A DNA stretch of 31,020 nucleotides from Escherichia coli (lineage in GTDB: Bacteria; Pseudomonadota; Gammaproteobacteria; Enterobacterales; Enterobacteriaceae), in assembly GCF_003334315.1 (NCBI RefSeq), contig NZ_QOWR01000054.1. The stretch is one strand, 5' to 3'. The position numbers were made by a program, and so were the translations under genes. This document shows, one piece after another, positions 2,149 to 27,058 of this stretch (positions within the stretch are counted from its first letter, which is position 1; each line of letters starts with the position of its first letter). The notes beneath the pieces were generated by a model. The model had not been told where the DNA came from. It was given only the letters and a program-made list of their open reading frames with translations, and searched no databases.

Positions 2149-3438
2149 ATGAAAGTATTAGTGATTGGTAACGGCGGGCGCGAGCACGCGCTGGCCTGGA
2201 AAGCGGCGCAGTCGCCGCTGGTTGAAACTGTTTTTGTTGCTCCGGGTAATGCAGGCACTGCGCTGGAACCCGCGCTACAGAACGTCGCTATCGGCGTAAC
2301 CGATATCCCGGCGCTGTTGGATTTCGCACAAAACGAAAAGATTGATCTGACCATCGTCGGCCCGGAAGCGCCGCTGGTGAAAGGCGTGGTCGATACCTTC
2401 CGCGCCGCCGGGCTGAAAATCTTCGGCCCAACCGCAGGTGCGGCCCAACTGGAAGGCTCAAAAGCGTTTACCAAAGATTTCCTGGCCCGCCATAAGATCC
2501 CTACGGCGGAATACCAGAACTTCACCGAGGTAGAACCTGCGCTGGCGTATCTGCGTGAGAAAGGCGCGCCAATCGTCATTAAAGCGGACGGTCTGGCTGC
2601 CGGGAAAGGCGTTATCGTGGCGATGACGCTGGAAGAAGCGGAAGCGGCTGTTCACGATATGCTGGCGGGCAACGCTTTTGGCGACGCGGGTCATCGCATC
2701 GTTATCGAAGAGTTCCTCGATGGCGAAGAAGCGAGCTTTATCGTGATGGTGGACGGAGAGCATGTGCTGCCGATGGCTACCAGCCAGGATCACAAACGCG
2801 TAGGCGATAAAGATACCGGACCAAACACCGGCGGGATGGGCGCTTACTCCCCCGCGCCGGTAGTAACCGATGAAGTTCATCAGCGCACCATGGAACGTAT
2901 CATCTGGCCAACCGTGAAAGGCATGGCGGCGGAAGGCAACACCTACACCGGTTTTCTCTACGCGGGCCTGATGATCGACAAACAGGGCAATCCGAAGGTT
3001 ATCGAATTTAACTGCCGCTTTGGCGATCCGGAAACCCAGCCGATTATGCTGCGCATGAAGTCCGATCTGGTTGAGCTCTGCCTGGCAGCCTGTGAAGGGA
3101 AGCTGGACGAGAAAACATCCGAGTGGGATGAACGCGCTTCTCTCGGCGTGGTGATGGCTGCGGGTGGATATCCGGGCGATTACCGCACCGGTGATGTGAT
3201 CCACGGCCTGCCGCTGGAAGAAGTGGAAGACGGCAAAGTGTTCCATGCAGGCACAAAACTGGCGGATGACGAGCAGGTAGTGACCAGCGGCGGGCGCGTA
3301 CTGTGCGTCACCGCGCTGGGTCATACCGTGGCAGAAGCGCAGAAACGCACTTATGCCTTAATGACCGATATTCACTGGGACGACTGCTTCTGCCGGAAAG
3401 ATATCGGCTGGCGCGCCATCGAACGCGAGCAGAACTAA
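2149..3438 (+). CDS. purD: Phosphoribosylamine-glycine ligase (GAR synthetase)
   Basis: 429-aa ORF MKVLVIGNGGREHALAWKAAQSPL... with ATP-grasp motifs; 11 bp downstream of the purH stop. Confidence 0.97.
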   Translation: MKVLVIGNGGREHALAWKAAQSPLVETVFVAPGNAGTALEPALQNVAIGVTDIPALLDFAQNEKIDLTIVGPEAPLVKGVVDTFRAAGLKIFGPTAGAAQLEGSKAFTKDFLARHKIPTAEYQNFTEVEPALAYLREKGAPIVIKADGLAAGKGVIVAMTLEEAEAAVHDMLAGNAFGDAGHRIVIEEFLDGEEASFIVMVDGEHVLPMATSQDHKRVGDKDTGPNTGGMGAYSPAPVVTDEVHQRTMERIIWPTVKGMAAEGNTYTGFLYAGLMIDKQGNPKVIEFNCRFGDPETQPIMLRMKSDLVELCLAACEGKLDEKTSEWDERASLGVVMAAGGYPGDYRTGDVIHGLPLEEVEDGKVFHAGTKLADDEQVVTSGGRVLCVTALGHTVAEAQKRTYALMTDIHWDDCFCRKDIGWRAIEREQN

Positions 3439-4760
3439 CGCGACAGTTTTGCCAATAGCGTTTTGCGCGTGATCCCTAACTGACGGGCGGCTTCGGTTTT
3501 GTTGCCGCCCGTTTTCTCCAGCGCCGCCAGAATCACCTCTTTTTCCACTTCCACCAACGGCTGAATATCCTGACTTTGTCCCAGCGGGATCGGCGTACTG
3601 GCAATCGCCAGCGGCAGCTCGCGTTCGGAAATATATTCCCCGGTCAGCAGCACCACTGCCCGTTCCACCGCGTTTTCCAGCTCACGAATATTTCCCGGCC
3701 AGTCGTAATGAATCAACAGATCCATCGCCTGGGGCGTAAAACCTTTTACCGCCTTGCGATTACGCTCGGCAAAGCGCTGCAGAAAATGGCCAGCCAGCAG
3801 AGGGATATCTTCCCGCCGTTGCCGCAGCGATGGTACTTCAATCGCCACCACATTCAGGCGATAGTAGAGATCCTGGCGAAAACGCCCGGCATTCACCTCT
3901 GCGGCAAGATCGCGATGGGTCGCCGCAATCAGCCGGACATCAACCGAGATAGTCTGGTTGCTACCGACACGCTGAACTTCGCGCTCCTGAATCGCACGCA
4001 GCAGACGCACCTGCATCATCGGCGAGATATCGCCAATTTCATCGAGAAACAGCGTGCCGCCGTCCGCCTCAACAAAGCGCCCTTCCCGGCGTTTATCGGC
4101 TCCAGTAAACGCCCCTTTTTCGTGACCGAACAATTCAGATTCCAGCAAGGATTCGTTGAGTGCCGCACAGTTGAGCGTTACCAGCGGTTTTTCGCTACGT
4201 GCGCTACTGGCGTGAATCGCCCTGGCGACCAGCTCTTTACCGGTGCCGGAATCGCCGTGGATCAGCACCGTGGCTTCCGATGGCGCGACGAGGGCGATTT
4301 CACTGAGCAGGTGTTGCATCGCCGGGCTTTTACCGACCATACCGAACTGGCTGGCAGTCACCGCAGGTGTTTCAGCATCAATACTGTGCGTATGCGCGAG
4401 CGCCTTTTCCAGCGTCGCCTGTAGGTTATCGAAATCCAGCGGCTTGATGAGATAATCCAGCGCCCCGGTTTTCAGTGCCTCTACCGCCGTCTCGACGCTG
4501 GAGTATGCGGTCATAATCAGTACCGGAATCGCCGGATTTAACGCTTTGATCTCTTTTAGCGTGGCAATGCCGTCCATCTCCGCCATTCGCACATCGCAAA
4601 GCACAAGATCAAAAACTCGCTCCCGCACCTGCTCCAGCGCCTGTCGCCCGCTGTTCGCCAGCGCGACGTTATAGCCCCAGCCGCGCAGTAAAGCCTGCAA
4701 AATAGTGCAGTGGCTAATGTCATCATCCACCACCAGAATATCGATATTATCGTGCGTCAT
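3435..4760 (-). CDS. zraR: Sigma-54-dependent response regulator (bacterial enhancer-binding protein)
   Basis: 441-aa ORF with an N-terminal receiver domain (DILVVDDD...), AAA+ sigma-54 activation domain (GDSGTGKE Walker A, GAFTGA loop) and C-terminal helix-turn-helix; stop overlaps the convergent purD stop. Confidence 0.95.
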
Positions 4761-6133
4761 CCTTGTGGGTCCTTACGCGTAATATTGACCGGAAGACAGA
4801 GGGTGAACGTTGCGCCTTTTCCCTCCTGGCTTGCGACCTGAATTGTACCACCGTGTTGTTCAACAATATTATGCACGACCGCCAGCCCCAATCCGGTGCC
4901 TTCGGCTTTGGTGGTGAAGTACGGAGTGAAGATGGCTTCAAGCTGACCTGCCGCAATTCCCTTACCGCTGTCGGTAACGCTGATTTTCACGCCCGCGCCG
5001 CTTTCGCTGGCCGTCACGCTAATCACACCATGCTGACCAATCGCCTGAATAGCATTGAGATAGAGATTCAACAGGACCTGAGTCAGCCTGTCTGGGTCGG
5101 CCTGAATTACCGGTAATGTGTCGTTGGTGGTAAAGCGTAACTGGATCTCCCGGCTGTTTGCATCCTGGCTTACCAGCTGTAATGAGTGGTTAATCAGCGT
5201 GTTGAGATCCACCGCCTGCAAAGCCAGATGCGTTGGCTTAACCAGTTCCAGCAACTCGCTTACCACACGGTTTAAACGGTCGGCTTCTTTCGCCATCACC
5301 TGCGCCAATTGATGCGCTTCTCCCCCTGCTGGCGCGCGTTCGGCAAAGTATTTCGCCAGCCCTTTAATTGAGGAAAGTGGATTACGGATTTCGTGGGCAA
5401 CGCCTGCTGCAAGATGCCCCAGTGCCACCAGCTTCTCTTTGCGCTTCATTTCATCCTGCAACAGCTGGCGCGAGCGCAGATAGCGGCGATACCAGAAGAA
5501 TGACAACACGCTTGCCAGCAAGACCGTCGCCAGGGCGAAGAGGATAATCAGGGTGTTTCTCTGCTCACGATCTTCGGCACTCACAATATTACTGGCGTCG
5601 AAAGCGATGAAAATTGCTTGTGGTGTCGCGGCATACTGCTGCATATGGCGCATCCGGTGCATTCCAGCAGCAAACATCGGTTGAAACTGGCGATAAATTT
5701 CCAGAACAGGCTCGCCGTCTGCGCTATCGATCCGCCGCCACGCTTCTTCATCTCCCGGATGTAACTGCTGCATTTCCTGCGGGGAATAAAGCTGTTTTCC
5801 CACCATGCCGGAGTTGCTATGCATCACGATTGTTCCTTGTTCATCCGTGACCGCAAACCAACGTACTCCAGGCTGCCCGGCCATTTCTTCCAGTAAGGCC
5901 TGCTGCTGCGCATGATGCATGCGCATCCCCATGCCGACGCGCGAGCCGGATTCAAGAGCGCGAATAAGTACACTGCCTTTTTCCAGCAGCGTTTGTCTGG
6001 CGGCGGCAGTCTCGCGCCCATAATCGCGAATCACCGTCACCGCAAACAGCCCCACCAGCCCAACAATGACCACGGGGAGGATCGCGCTTAACCATTTAGC
6101 TAAGGAGTCTTTAGAACGTTGCATAAAACGCAT
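4757..6133 (-). CDS. zraS: Sensor histidine kinase of the ZraSR two-component system
   Basis: 458-aa ORF with an N-terminal transmembrane segment, H-box (HEIRNPL) and ATP-binding G-boxes; its stop overlaps the zraR start (ATGA junction). Confidence 0.93.
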   Translation of the reverse strand: MRFMQRSKDSLAKWLSAILPVVIVGLVGLFAVTVIRDYGRETAAARQTLLEKGSVLIRALESGSRVGMGMRMHHAQQQALLEEMAGQPGVRWFAVTDEQGTIVMHSNSGMVGKQLYSPQEMQQLHPGDEEAWRRIDSADGEPVLEIYRQFQPMFAAGMHRMRHMQQYAATPQAIFIAFDASNIVSAEDREQRNTLIILFALATVLLASVLSFFWYRRYLRSRQLLQDEMKRKEKLVALGHLAAGVAHEIRNPLSSIKGLAKYFAERAPAGGEAHQLAQVMAKEADRLNRVVSELLELVKPTHLALQAVDLNTLINHSLQLVSQDANSREIQLRFTTNDTLPVIQADPDRLTQVLLNLYLNAIQAIGQHGVISVTASESGAGVKISVTDSGKGIAAGQLEAIFTPYFTTKAEGTGLGLAVVHNIVEQHGGTIQVASQEGKGATFTLCLPVNITRKDPQG

Positions 6134-6164
6134 CTTCTTCTTTGCCTGCTCATCCCTTTCTGAC

Positions 6165-6180
6165 AGCAGAAATCATGCCA
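6165..6180 (-). promoter_or_regulatory. zraS: Sigma-54 (-24/-12) promoter for zraSR
   Basis: Minus-strand sequence TGGCATGATTTCTGCT (rc of 6165-6180) has GG and GC at the consensus spacing of TGGCAC-N5-TTGCA, about 30 bp upstream of the zraS start. Confidence 0.6.
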
Positions 6181-6231
6181 TCTTTTATCAGCGCTTACCC
6201 TGCGCTGTAACACAAAGGCTTAAGTTTCAAT

Positions 6232-6277
6232 GAGTAAAAATGACTCGCTACCCGCAGCAGGCGAGTCATTTTTACTC
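6232..6277. promoter_or_regulatory. Perfect 17-bp inverted repeat (GAGTAAAAATGACTCGC-N12-GCGAGTCATTTTTACTC), candidate ZraR enhancer site
   Basis: Exact reverse-complement arms read directly from the sequence, centred about 70-90 bp upstream of both divergent sigma-54 promoters, the position expected for an enhancer-binding protein site. Confidence 0.65.
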
Positions 6278-6319
6278 GTTTATCATGCCAGATTACCCGT
6301 CATATCAGCGTTTCATCGT

Positions 6320-6336
6320 TGGCACGGAAGATGCAA
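6320..6336 (+). promoter_or_regulatory. zraP: Sigma-54 (-24/-12) promoter for zraP
   Basis: TGGCACGGAAGATGCAA matches TGGCAC-N5-TTGCA with correct GG/GC spacing; about 35 bp upstream of the zraP ATG, which has a GGAGG ribosome-binding site. Confidence 0.7.
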
Positions 6337-6370
6337 TACCCGAAGTAAGACAACCATCGGAGGATTAACC

Positions 6371-6853
6371 ATGAAACGGAACACGAAAATTGCCCTGGTA
6401 ATGATGGCGCTTTCAGCAATGGCGATGGGCTCGACATCTGCATTTGCTCACGGCGGACACGGTATGTGGCAGCAAAATGCCGCGCCTTTGACCAGCGAAC
6501 AACAGACAGCGTGGCAGAAAATCCATAATGACTTTTACGCTCAAAGCAGCGCACTGCAACAGCAACTGGTGACGAAGCGTTATGAATACAATGCCCTGTT
6601 AGCCGCGAACCCACCGGATAGCAGCAAAATTAACGCGGTCGCCAAAGAGATGGAGAATTTGCGTCAGTCGTTAGATGAGTTACGGGTGAAACGAGATATT
6701 GCGATGGCTGAAGCGGGTATTCCGCGCGGTACACCGGAATGGGTTACGGCGGCTGCGGTGGTGGCGGTCATATGGGTATGGGCCACTGGTAAATCAGAAC
6801 GTTTTCTCGTTGGGTTGCCAGCGACAGAAATCAGAGTTTGCCACCAACAGTAA
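6371..6853 (+). CDS. zraP: Periplasmic zinc-stress protein ZraP (signal peptide plus LTxxQ-type region); C-terminus as read here looks frameshifted
   Basis: Start ATG at 6371 (MKRNTKIALVMMALSAMAMGSTSAFA signal peptide) with a GGAGG RBS. The in-frame reading runs to 6853 with a hydrophobic tail overlapping yjaH, whereas a Gly/His-rich tail MGYGGCGGGGHMGMGHW-stop is encoded in the next frame and ends at 6792. Confidence 0.6.
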   Translation: MKRNTKIALVMMALSAMAMGSTSAFAHGGHGMWQQNAAPLTSEQQTAWQKIHNDFYAQSSALQQQLVTKRYEYNALLAANPPDSSKINAVAKEMENLRQSLDELRVKRDIAMAEAGIPRGTPEWVTAAAVVAVIWVWATGKSERFLVGLPATEIRVCHQQ

Positions 6854-22781: not shown

Positions 22782-25700
22782 TTACTCGTCTTCCAGTTCG
22801 ATGTTGATACCCAGCGAACGAATCTCTTTCAACAATACGTTGAAGGATTCTGGCATGCCCGGCTCCATCTGATGGTTGCCGTCCACGATGTTTTTATACA
22901 TCTTGGTACGACCGTTCACGTCATCAGACTTAACGGTGAGCATTTCCTGCAGGGTGTATGCTGCGCCGTATGCTTCCAGCGCCCACACTTCCATCTCCCC
23001 GAAACGCTGACCACCGAACTGTGCCTTACCACCCAGCGGCTGCTGAGTAACCAGGCTGTAAGAACCGGTGGAACGCGCGTGCATCTTGTCGTCGACCAGG
23101 TGGTTCAGTTTCAGCATGTACATGTAACCAACGGTTACCGGACGCTCGAACTGTTCACCAGTGCGACCATCGTACAGGCGGATCTGACCGGAAGTCGGCA
23201 GGTCGCCAAGTTTCAGCAGCTCTTTAATTTCTGCTTCTTTCGCACCGTCGAACACCGGCGTTGCGATTGGCATACCTTTGCGCAGGTTTTCAGCCAGACG
23301 CATAACTTCTTCATCGCTGAAGGTACTCAGGTCAACTTTCTGACGAACGTCAGCGCCCAGATCGTACGCACGCTGGATGAATTCGCGCAGTTTCGCGACT
23401 TCTTGCTGCTGTTTCAGCATGGCGTTGATCTTGTCGCCGATACCTTTCGCAGCCATACCCAGGTGGGTTTCGAGGATCTGACCGATGTTCATACGAGACG
23501 GTACGCCCAGCGGGTTCAGTACGATGTCTACCGGCGTACCGTTTTCATCGTAAGGCATATCTTCGATCGGGTTGATCTTAGAAATTACACCCTTGTTACC
23601 GTGACGACCTGCCATCTTGTCACCAGGCTGGATACGGCGTTTAACCGCCAGATATACCTTAACAATCTTCAGCACGCCCGGTGCCAGATCGTCGCCCTGG
23701 GTGATTTTGCGGCGTTTCGCTTCGAGTTTCTTCTCGAACTCGTGTTTCAGTTCGTCATACTGCTCAGCCAGCTGTTCCAGCTGATTTTGTTTCTCTTCGT
23801 CTGTCAGGCCCAGCTCCAGCCAGCGATCGCGCGGCAGTTTGTCGAGCTTCTCAGCTTCAACGCCACCGGCTACCAGCACAGCACGGATACGGCTGAACAG
23901 ACCCGCTTCGAGGATCTGCAGTTCTTCAGACAGGTCTTTCTTCGCCTGTTTGAGCTGCATTTCTTCGATTTCCAGCGCACGTTTGTCTTTTTCTACGCCA
24001 TCGCGAGTAAAGACCTGAACGTCGATAACCGTACCGGATACACCGTTTGGTACGCGCAGAGAAGAGTCTTTAACGTCAGAGGCTTTCTCACCGAAGATCG
24101 CACGCAGCAGTTTTTCTTCTGGGGTCAGCTGAGTTTCACCTTTCGGCGTTACCTTACCAACCAGAATGTCGCCACCGGTCACTTCCGCACCAATGTAAAC
24201 GATACCGGATTCATCCAGTTTGGAGAGCGCAGCTTCACCCACGTTCGGGATGTCAGCGGTGATCTCTTCCGGACCCAGCTTGGTGTCACGGGACACACAC
24301 GCCAGTTCCTGAATGTGGATGGTGGTGAAACGGTCTTCCTGAACAACACGCTCGGATACGAGGATGGAGTCTTCGAAGTTGTAACCATTCCACGGCATGA
24401 ACGCTACGCGCATGTTCTGACCAAGCGCCAGTTCACCGAGGTCGGTGGACGGACCGTCTGCCAGCACGTCGCCACGTTCAACCGGTTCACCCAGAGACAC
24501 ACACGGCATCTGGTTGATACAGGTGTTCTGGTTAGAACGGGTGTATTTGGTCAGGTTGTAGATGTCGATACCTGCTTCACCCGGATACATCTCGTCTTCG
24601 TTAACTTTGATAACGATACGGGAAGCATCCACGTACTGAACGACACCACCACGTTTAGCTACCGCAGTTACACCGGAGTCAACGGCAACAGCACGTTCCA
24701 TACCAGTACCAACCAGCGGCTTATCAGCGCGCAGAGTCGGAACGGCCTGACGTTGCATGTTCGCACCCATCAATGCACGGTTGGCGTCATCGTGTTCCAG
24801 GAACGGGATCAGGGACGCACCGACGGATACCACCTGCTGGGTGGATACGTCCATGTAGTCAACCTGGTCGCGGCTGAACAAGCTGGATTCGCCTTTGCTA
24901 CGGCAAGTTACCAGGTCTTCTACGAAGTGGCCTTCTTCATCCAAGTTGGAGTTCGCCTGGGCGATAACGTAGTTGCCTTCTTCGATAGCAGACAGGTAGT
25001 GAATTTCGTCAGTTACAACACCGTCGGTCACTTTACGATACGGAGTCTCAAGGAAGCCGTATTCGTTAGTCTGTGCGTACACGGACAGAGAGTTGATCAG
25101 ACCGATGTTCGGACCTTCAGGGGTTTCGATTGGACATACGCGACCGTAGTGAGTCGGGTGTACGTCTCGAACTTCGAAGCCTGCACGTTCACGGGTCAGA
25201 CCGCCTGGGCCGAGTGCGGAGATACGACGTTTGTGCGTAATCTCAGACAGCGGGTTGTTCTGGTCCATAAACTGAGACAGCTGGCTGGAACCGAAGAACT
25301 CTTTCACTGCTGCGGAAATCGGCTTGGCGTTGATCATATCCTGTGGCATCAGGGTATCCAGATCGCCCAGAGACAGACGCTCTTTCACCGCACGCTCTAC
25401 ACGTACCAGGCCAACGCGGAACTGGTTTTCCGCCATTTCGCCAACGGAACGGATACGACGGTTGCCGAGGTGGTCGATATCATCGACTTCGCCTTTACCG
25501 TTACGGATATCGATGAGCTTTTTCATAACATCAATGATGTCGTCTTTGCTCAGGATACCGGAACCTTCGATTTCTTCGCGCAGCAGAGAACGGTTGAACT
25601 TCATACGACCAACCGCAGACAAGTCATAACGGTCTTCGGAGAAGAACAGGTTCTCGAACAGGCTTTCAGCTGCTTCACGAGTCGGCGGCTCGCCAGGGCG

Positions 25701-26810
25701 CATCATGCGGTAGATTTCTACCAGTGCGCTCAGACGGTCGTTAGTTGGGTCGACACGTAAGGTTTCAGAGATATATGGGCCGTGATCCAGATCGTTGGTG
25801 AACAGCGTTTCGATACGCTTGTGACCAGACTGGCTCAGCTTAGCCAGCAGATCCAGGCTCAGCTCCATGTTCGCTGCGCAGATCAGCTCGCCGGTAGACT
25901 CATCAATATAGTCTTTAGCAACCACTTTACCTGCGATGTACTCAACCGGGACTTCGATCAGTTTGACGTCGTCTTTTTCCAGCTGGCGAATGTGGCGCGC
26001 AGTGATACGGCGGCCTTTTTCTACGTACACTTTACCGTTAGCTTCGATGTCAAAAGATGCGGTTTCACCACGCAGGCGTTCCGGCACCAGTTCCATCTGC
26101 AGCTTGTTATCACGGATTTCAAAGATAACTTTTTCAAAGAACAGGTCGAGGATCTGCTCTGTGGTGTAGTTCAGGGCGCGCAGAATGATGGTCGCAGGCA
26201 GTTTACGGCGACGGTCGATACGTACGAACAGGTTGTCCTTCGGATCGAATTCGAAGTCCAGCCAGGAACCACGGTAAGGGATGATACGCGCGTTATACAG
26301 CACTTTACCCGAAGAGTGGGTTTTACCTTTGTCGGAGTCAAAGAAGACGCCCGGACTACGGTGCAGCTGGGAAACGATAACACGCTCAGTACCGTTGATA
26401 ACAAAGGTACCGTTGTCTGTCATGAGCGGAATTTCGCCCATGTAGACTTCTTGTTCTTTAATGTCTTTTACGGTGCCTTCCGGCGCTTCGCGCTCATAGA
26501 TCACCAGACGCAGTTTAACGCGCAGCGGTGCGGAATAGGTCACGCCACGGATTTGACATTCCTGGACGTCAAACACCGGTTCGCCAAGGCGGTAGCTGAC
26601 GTATTGCAGCTCGGAATTACCGCTGTAGCTCTGAATCGGGAATACGGAACGGAAAGCAGCTTCCAGACCATACTGCCCTTCAGGATCTTGCTCGATAAAT
26701 TTCTGAAACGAGTCAAGCTGGATAGAAAGGAGATAAGGTACATCCAGAACTTGTGGACGTTTACCAAAATCCTTACGAATACGTTTTTTCTCGGTATAGG
26801 AGTAAACCAT
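22782..26810 (-). CDS. rpoB: DNA-directed RNA polymerase subunit beta
   Basis: The ORF track extends to 26843, but the recognised start [28 protein letters not shown] is the ATG at 26808-26810 with a GAGGAA RBS; 1342 aa; the rifampicin-resistance region reads as wild type. Confidence 0.99.
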
Positions 26811-27058
26811 AGGGTTCCTCAGCTCGCTGACAAGTCGACCCATCTGTCCATTGAGCGGACAGTTTGTGCAACACTATTTTGTTGACCGGAAAATGGAACA
26901 CTTTCCGCAATGCCTGTTGCTATCACGCTTAAACCATTTCATTGCGATTTACACAGAACGGACGTCCTGTCGCAGTATATTAAGTCGTCGATAGAAACAA
27001 GCATTGAAAGGCACAGCAGTAGTCAAACAGTGTGAAACGCTACTGGCGCCTTACAGCG

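Follow-up and report, generated by a model that had tools for sequence, protein, structure and literature searches.

At glnAp2, NtrC has two strong sites, each a 17-bp dyad, with a separation of about three helical turns. In the bEBPs related to ZraR one dimer is placed on each dyad, and the active oligomer is built from three dimers in the case of NorR or from two dimers and protomers from solution in the case of NtrC, for whose oligomers two enhancers suffice (PMC2831303). For the zra system itself, the locus, both of its promoters and the spot bound by ZraR are already documented in E. coli K-12. ChIP-exo in MG1655 grown with zinc placed the strongest ZraR peak (peak_9, S/N 73) at 4201786-4201818, at a distance of 98 bp to zraP and 107 bp to zraS, and deletion of zraR in zinc lowered zraP by log2 12.7 (2^12.7-fold) and zraS by log2 3.2 (2^3.2-fold; PMC7657598 supplement). 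In genomic SELEX with purified ZraR, the zraS-zraP spacer was the single high-affinity target, accounting for 81 of 86 clones (PMC8249747). According to a passage in a review that cites a study from 2001, HydG (ZraR) binds the zraP-hydHG intergenic region when supplied with a phosphoryl donor, so that binding depends on phosphorylation (PMC5391612). A Salmonella review from 2016 still gives the consensus of the ZraR enhancer as 'NK' (not known; PMC4987338), and no paper quoting the half-site sequence was found in our literature search. The 2001 abstract of Leonhartsberger et al. reportedly describes the region bound by HydG as having 'two inverted repeats separated by a 14 bp spacer'. This agrees with two 17-bp dyads with exactly 14 bp between them (6248-6261 in our numbering).

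Here, we analyzed an inverted repeat between zraS and zraP in a window of 31,020 nucleotides, i.e. the whole stretch of E. coli DNA under study, to which all coordinates refer unless another locus is given. With a probability of roughly 0.9, this repeat serves the ZraPSR system, which responds to zinc and envelope stress, as its upstream activating sequence (enhancer), composed of two dyad-symmetric 17-bp ZraR sites which would nucleate the hexamer and are shared by both promoters.

The zra locus and its divergent sigma-54 promoters

The window is a piece of the E. coli chromosome with the gene order purD-zraR-zraS / zraP-yjaH-hupA, in which a spacer of 237 bp (6134-6370) separates the divergent genes zraS and zraP. 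From 6120 to 6356 the window matches K-12 MG1655 base for base, so that the published K-12 data support our reading of it. The region is the same element as the zraP-zraSR region bound by ZraR (HydG) in K-12 according to the RegulonDB ZraR motif and ChIP-exo (PMC7657598). Of 5426 complete E. coli genomes searched by Megablast, 5421 contain the 301 bases around the repeat, in every case as the zraS-zraP spacer.

The ORF of zraR (3435-4760, minus strand) encodes a protein of 441 aa, the sigma-54-dependent response regulator and enhancer-binding protein that binds the repeat. Its product scores 996 bits against the NCBIfam ZraR equivalog (cut-off 760), matches the PDB entry 1OJL (ZraR; E 4e-178), a solved hexameric relative, and contains the Pfam domains Response_reg, Sigma54_activat (1.3e-73), AAA_lid_14 and HTH_8 (5.6e-15). 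The GAFTGA motif is seen in the translation, and an AAA+ sigma-54 interaction domain with GAFTGA together with an HTH marks ZraR as a bEBP activator. The sensor histidine kinase ZraS (458 aa, 880 bits against its NCBIfam equivalog with a cut-off of 479) is encoded at 4757-6133 on the minus strand by the first gene of the zraSR operon, which has a minus-strand promoter. The gene for the periplasmic chaperone and feedback modulator ZraP lies at 6371-6792 on the plus strand, with the start taken from RefSeq on identical DNA and a ribosome-binding site, GGAGG, at 6360-6364. The identities of zraS and zraP are based on the RefSeq annotation of identical DNA and on NCBIfam equivalog scores, the intact ZraP protein exceeding the cut-off of its model.

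In the window, zraP is frameshifted. Alignment with an otherwise identical E. coli strain carrying the intact allele places a 2-bp AC insertion at 6731-6732, by which the frame is shifted just before the Gly/His/Cys-rich C-terminal tail and the ORF runs on to 6853. This allele is present in at most 55 of the 5426 complete genomes, and RefSeq annotates it there as a 'frameshifted' pseudogene; its occurrence in natural isolates rules out an engineered or artefactual insertion. The enhancer and the promoters upstream are intact, and the locus illustrates that an intact control region need not mean an intact target gene.

The initial annotation had described two opposed -24/-12 elements flanking the repeat. 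Both were located. On the minus strand, the zraSR promoter (TGGCATGATTTCTGCT) occupies 6165-6180, and on the plus strand, the zraP promoter (TGGCACGGAAGATGCA) occupies 6320-6335; both are identical to sites from sigma-54 ChIP-seq in K-12. There, the motifs OS39 (ATGGCATGATTTCTGCT, given to zraS, our minus-strand element) and OS38 (TTGGCACGGAAGATGCA, given to zraP, our plus-strand element) are counted as occupied intergenic promoters (PMC4591121). The spacing from GG to GC is exactly 10 nt in both promoters, which fit the consensus TGGCAC-N5-TTGCW, the zraP element having an A in place of Y before TGC. Across 32 Enterobacteriaceae the mean majority-base frequency amounts to 0.99 for the zraSR promoter and to 0.98 for that of zraP. 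The relaxed pattern TGGCAY-N6-TGCW has three matches in the 31-kb window as compared to 0.20 expected, a number reached by no shuffle. The third of these sigma-54-like matches, TGGCACCGGGCGTGCT at 23671-23686 on the minus strand, lies inside a minus-strand ORF of 1353 aa (22782-26843) and is absent from the main text of the K-12 sigma-54 ChIP-seq paper (PMC4591121).

Some ZraR-independent transcription of zraS exists: in LB, basal zraSR expression was unchanged upon deletion of zraR (log2 -0.02; PMC7657598 supplement). Between 6050 and 6450 no sigma-70-like promoter was detected. A block at 6197-6218, located to the left of ZraR site 1 on the side of the zraS promoter, has moderate conservation (mean 0.78). 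In most genera its sequence is AACCCTG...ACACAAAC, and it shows no likeness to a ZraR site, to the IHF consensus or to a sigma-70 promoter. We regard this block as a candidate source of the ZraR-independent basal zraS expression.

Anatomy and conservation of the repeat

The perfect 17-bp inverted repeat with a loop of 12 nt reported by the initial annotation is present in the window. The arm GAGTAAAAATGACTCGC spans 6232-6248, and GCGAGTCATTTTTACTC, which complements it in all positions (17/17), spans 6261-6277. It can be extended to arms of 20 nt (6229-6248 and 6261-6280) with one mismatch, corresponding to 95% complementarity. No longer perfect inverted repeat with a loop of up to 30 nt is found in the 31-kb window, where the runner-up has 12 nt, and the longest arm in 200 dinucleotide-preserving shuffles of the window was 13 nt. 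The axis at 6254.5 is 74.5 bp away from the TGGCA of zraS and 65.5 bp from that of zraP; the repeat had been placed midway between the promoters, which holds approximately.

For comparison across Enterobacteriaceae, as the initial annotation had suggested, zraP loci were taken from one genome per species, and the spacers of 32 species from six genera (Escherichia, Citrobacter, Salmonella, Kosakonia, Klebsiella and Phytobacter) were aligned, giving 64 arms. The enhancer occurs together with both promoters in all 32 loci, and the two promoters and two arms are the standout conserved blocks in the 32 species (0.90-0.99 versus 0.53-0.67 for the rest). The left arm, ZraR site 1 (6231-6247, plus strand), is TGAGTAAAAATGACTCG, a 17-bp quasi-palindrome fitting the arm consensus YGRGTAAAAATGACYCR, with a conservation of 0.90. 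The right arm, ZraR site 2 (6262-6278, minus strand; CGAGTCATTTTTACTCG on the plus strand), is the same 17-mer inverted, has a conservation of 0.97 and carries a 5+5 palindromic rim, the E. coli sequence being CGAGT-N7-ACTCG. The 14-bp spacer between the sites (6248-6261) is conserved in length and not in sequence (mean majority-base frequency 0.58), and the segment from the right arm to the zraP promoter reaches 0.53. The conservation supports the view that the arms are functional, sequence-specific sites.

In the consensus from the 64 arms, G.GTAAAAATGAC.C is invariant or nearly so. Each arm contains a dyad of its own, in which positions ±2, ±4, ±5 and ±7 are complementary in 63-64 of the 64 arms; this internal dyad amounts to only four invariant complementary pairs and has modest statistical support. 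Positions ±6 and ±8 are complementary in 44-45 of the arms. Covariation within the arms, GAGT/ACTC alternating with GGGT/ACCC, was considered and rejected: complementarity at ±6 is limited to 45 of the 64 arms, as would fit a degenerate R/Y position. The central 7 bp (AAAAATG) are invariant yet asymmetric and are not explained by a simple symmetric-dimer model. From centre to centre the arms are separated by 31 bp in 27 of the 32 species, by 32 bp in four and by 33 bp in one. As 31 bp correspond to about three helical turns, the sites would lie on the same face of the DNA.

The length of perfect pairing between the arms varies from 8 to 21 nt among the 32 species. Within Escherichia it is 15-18 nt, with only E. 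albertii falling to 9 nt. Most Citrobacter have 11 nt and C. youngae has 8 nt; Kosakonia arachidis reaches 19 nt and Salmonella arizonae 21 nt. The left and right arms agree at position +6 in 12 of 32 species, where 12.1 would be expected if they were independent, and at -6 in 18 of 32 (16.0 expected). Concerted evolution of the arms or selection for a hairpin was therefore rejected, since identity at the variable positions equals the expectation for independence. Given this variation in pairing and an arm identity at the level of independence, the 17/17 match in E. coli is incidental and results from two near-consensus copies. The initial annotation had called the match unusually perfect for a transcription-factor site; its perfection is not a selected feature.

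E. albertii (locus L005) has a substitution in the otherwise invariant core of the left arm (GTAAAAACGAC). Just upstream, it carries an additional perfect 10-bp inverted repeat, TGAAACACAA-N4-TTGTGTTTCA, which overlaps a conserved ACACAAA block (L005 2337-2360 and 2363-2408).

A bacterial enhancer is expected about 70-150 bp upstream of a -24/-12 promoter and conserved together with it, and the position of the repeat is in line with this. The arm centres are 50-81 bp from TGGCA on the zraP side and 59-90 bp on the zraS side. The distance from the axis to the zraS TGGCA is 72.5-75 bp in all species, and that to the zraP TGGCA is 64.5-65.5 bp in Escherichia and 75.5-77.5 bp in the other genera. 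Accordingly, the segment between the right site and the -24 element of zraP (6279-6319, compared with loci L008-L036 at about 2398-2448) is 11 bp shorter in Escherichia than in Citrobacter, Salmonella, Klebsiella, Kosakonia and Phytobacter. As 11 bp make one helical turn, the phase on the zraP side is preserved even though the sequence is not conserved. Judged from the sequences, these distances would fit short-range looping that depends on helical phase. No match to the IHF consensus WATCAANNNNTTR with up to one mismatch was found in the zraS-zraP spacer.

ZraR binding and the proposed mode of activation

Because of the sequence identity with K-12, peak_9 can be placed at 6241-6273 of the window, inside the repeat. 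It is a single 33-bp interval centred on the spacer and the inner halves of both arms, each of which is thus partly covered; at its resolution of about 30 bp, as opposed to single bases, one site and two sites are not separable. Taken together, the published K-12 data establish on identical sequence that sigma-54 is present at both promoters, that ZraR is bound to the repeat and that the transcripts depend on ZraR. ChIP-exo, genomic SELEX and zraR-knockout results therefore bear out the initial proposal that the repeat is the ZraR enhancer of both promoters. No further half-site match with up to three mismatches exists in the 31-kb window, so no third ZraR site was found.

A weaker second ZraR ChIP-exo peak of K-12 (peak_8, S/N 34; PMC7657598 supplement) maps to 6361-6386, covering the zraP ribosome-binding site and start codon, i.e. 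roughly positions +15 to +40 relative to the sigma-54 start. There is no match to the ZraR site within 6361-6386, and peak_8 may reflect ZraR that was cross-linked to the promoter complex in its looped state.

The initial annotation had envisaged a dimeric ZraR on the symmetric repeat. Binding of ZraR is confirmed by ChIP-exo, but two dimer sites probably fit better than one dimer, given that each arm forms a dyad of 17 bp and that 31 bp lie between the arm centres. If instead a single ZraR dimer spanned the whole repeat with one monomer on each 17-bp arm, the symmetry of the element would be the two-fold symmetry of the dimer. We consider this improbable. It would agree with the two-fold axis of the whole element, with the dimeric state of inactive ZraR-family proteins and with the one ChIP-exo peak centred near the axis. 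However, 31 bp correspond to about 105 Å, far above the half-site spacing of roughly one turn reported for related bEBPs with a Fis-type HTH, such as NorR (GT-N7-AC); moreover, every arm is a conserved dyad in itself, the 14 bp in between are unconserved, and related bEBPs put one dimer on each dyad. A role of the repeat as a nucleic-acid structure, be it a DNA cruciform or a transcribed hairpin, terminator or small RNA, is more improbable still. As single-stranded DNA the repeat does fold to a stem of 21 bp (-18.8 kcal/mol, z = -8), yet its location upstream of the transcription starts in both directions means that it is not expected in either mRNA. Neither a T-run nor a terminator-like site is found in 6050-6450, and no Rfam family exceeds the threshold, all matches being sub-threshold chance matches. 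Pairing is also not kept, with 8-11 perfect pairs in most Citrobacter and the chance level of identity at +6 given above, whereas the core bases are invariant whatever their pairing, which fits sequence-specific recognition.

Least probable of all is that the long ORF at 6230-6853 represents the true zraP and the repeat part of its 5' coding sequence. An ATG at 6230 shares the reading frame of zraP, and ZraP versions of 183-186 aa are found in databases, but the sigma-54 promoter at 6320-6335 lies downstream of this ATG, RefSeq starts zraP at 6371 behind the GGAGG, the alignment to the NCBIfam ZraP model begins at the first residue of the short protein, and the segment between right arm and promoter is unconserved and varies in length among genera. 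The extension 6230-6370 is thus an artefact, as had been noted initially on account of the repeat. In one O157:H7 genome, a 'hypothetical protein' has been annotated across the enhancer; this and the 183-186-aa 'ZraP' entries are annotation artefacts of the in-frame ATG at 6230.

With two ZraR sites forming one enhancer, as we prefer to read the repeat, activation could proceed as follows. Zinc, lead or envelope stress would be sensed by ZraS, leading to phosphorylation of ZraR. Each site would be bound by one ZraR dimer via the Fis-type HTH, and the two DNA-bound ZraR~P dimers would nucleate the AAA+ hexamer. The hexamer would then loop over about 65-75 bp to sigma-54 RNA polymerase in the closed complex at either the zraP or the zraSR promoter, which would be opened by ATP hydrolysis. 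As an outcome, the chaperone ZraP would be induced and zraSR positively autoregulated from one shared enhancer. The binding of two dimers instead of one, nucleation of the hexamer, dependence on helical phase and same-face looping without IHF are inferred.

Comparison with related enhancers

Relative to what is documented for K-12, our analysis adds an explicit 17-bp ZraR consensus (YGRGTAAAAATGACYCR), for which 64 arms of the six genera were used, the conserved site spacing of 31 bp with its phase, and the incidental nature of the 17/17 match. These results could be of use for zinc or lead biosensor parts based on the zraP promoter and for annotation of the ZraR regulon.

More speculatively, the repeat might be a purpose-built bidirectional enhancer, with mirror-image, asymmetric A-tract centres (AAAAATG) and one hexamer facing both promoters with equal geometry and without IHF, and a related arrangement might exist well beyond Enterobacteriaceae. 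Helical phase would then be under selection; it is kept by the indel of 11 bp that Escherichia shows towards zraP. We put this forward tentatively and consider it rather doubtful; neither the bidirectional enhancer nor the Desulfovibrio parallel described below was found in the literature consulted. In two Desulfovibrio-type loci (L035 and L034) a ZraS-like kinase and a ZraP-like gene, both below the NCBIfam cut-offs, are divergently arranged, with a sigma-54 promoter (TGGCACGCCGCTTGCT; L035 2292-2307, L034 2408-2423) and an upstream inverted repeat, GTAACTTTTTTAC-N20-GTAAAAAAGTTAC (L035 2169-2214, L034 2290-2327). This repeat shares the GTAAAAA/TTTTTAC motif and a 20-nt gap with the enterobacterial enhancer, but its orientation is opposite.

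As compared to K-12, the enhancer of the window shows no differences, while its target gene zraP carries the 2-bp frameshift here. Like ZraR, NtrC at glnAp2 is a response-regulator bEBP with a Fis-type HTH. However, its recognition sequence is unlike that of ZraR, and the ZraR enhancer serves two divergent promoters from a shorter distance (about 65-75 bp between axis and -24); its A-tract centres are invariant, strongly asymmetric and arranged as a global palindrome. The NorR enhancer between norR and norVW resembles that of ZraR in lying between divergent genes and in its inverted-repeat sites with the core GT-(N7)-AC, a pattern which the invariant ZraR core GTAAAAATGAC also fits. For NorR, one dimer per dyad builds the hexamer, and three sites and IHF are needed (PMC2831303), whereas the ZraR enhancer consists of two sites, and its spacer lacks an IHF consensus (up to one mismatch). 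Finally, only norVW is sigma-54 dependent in the NorR region, in contrast to the zra locus, where both promoters are.
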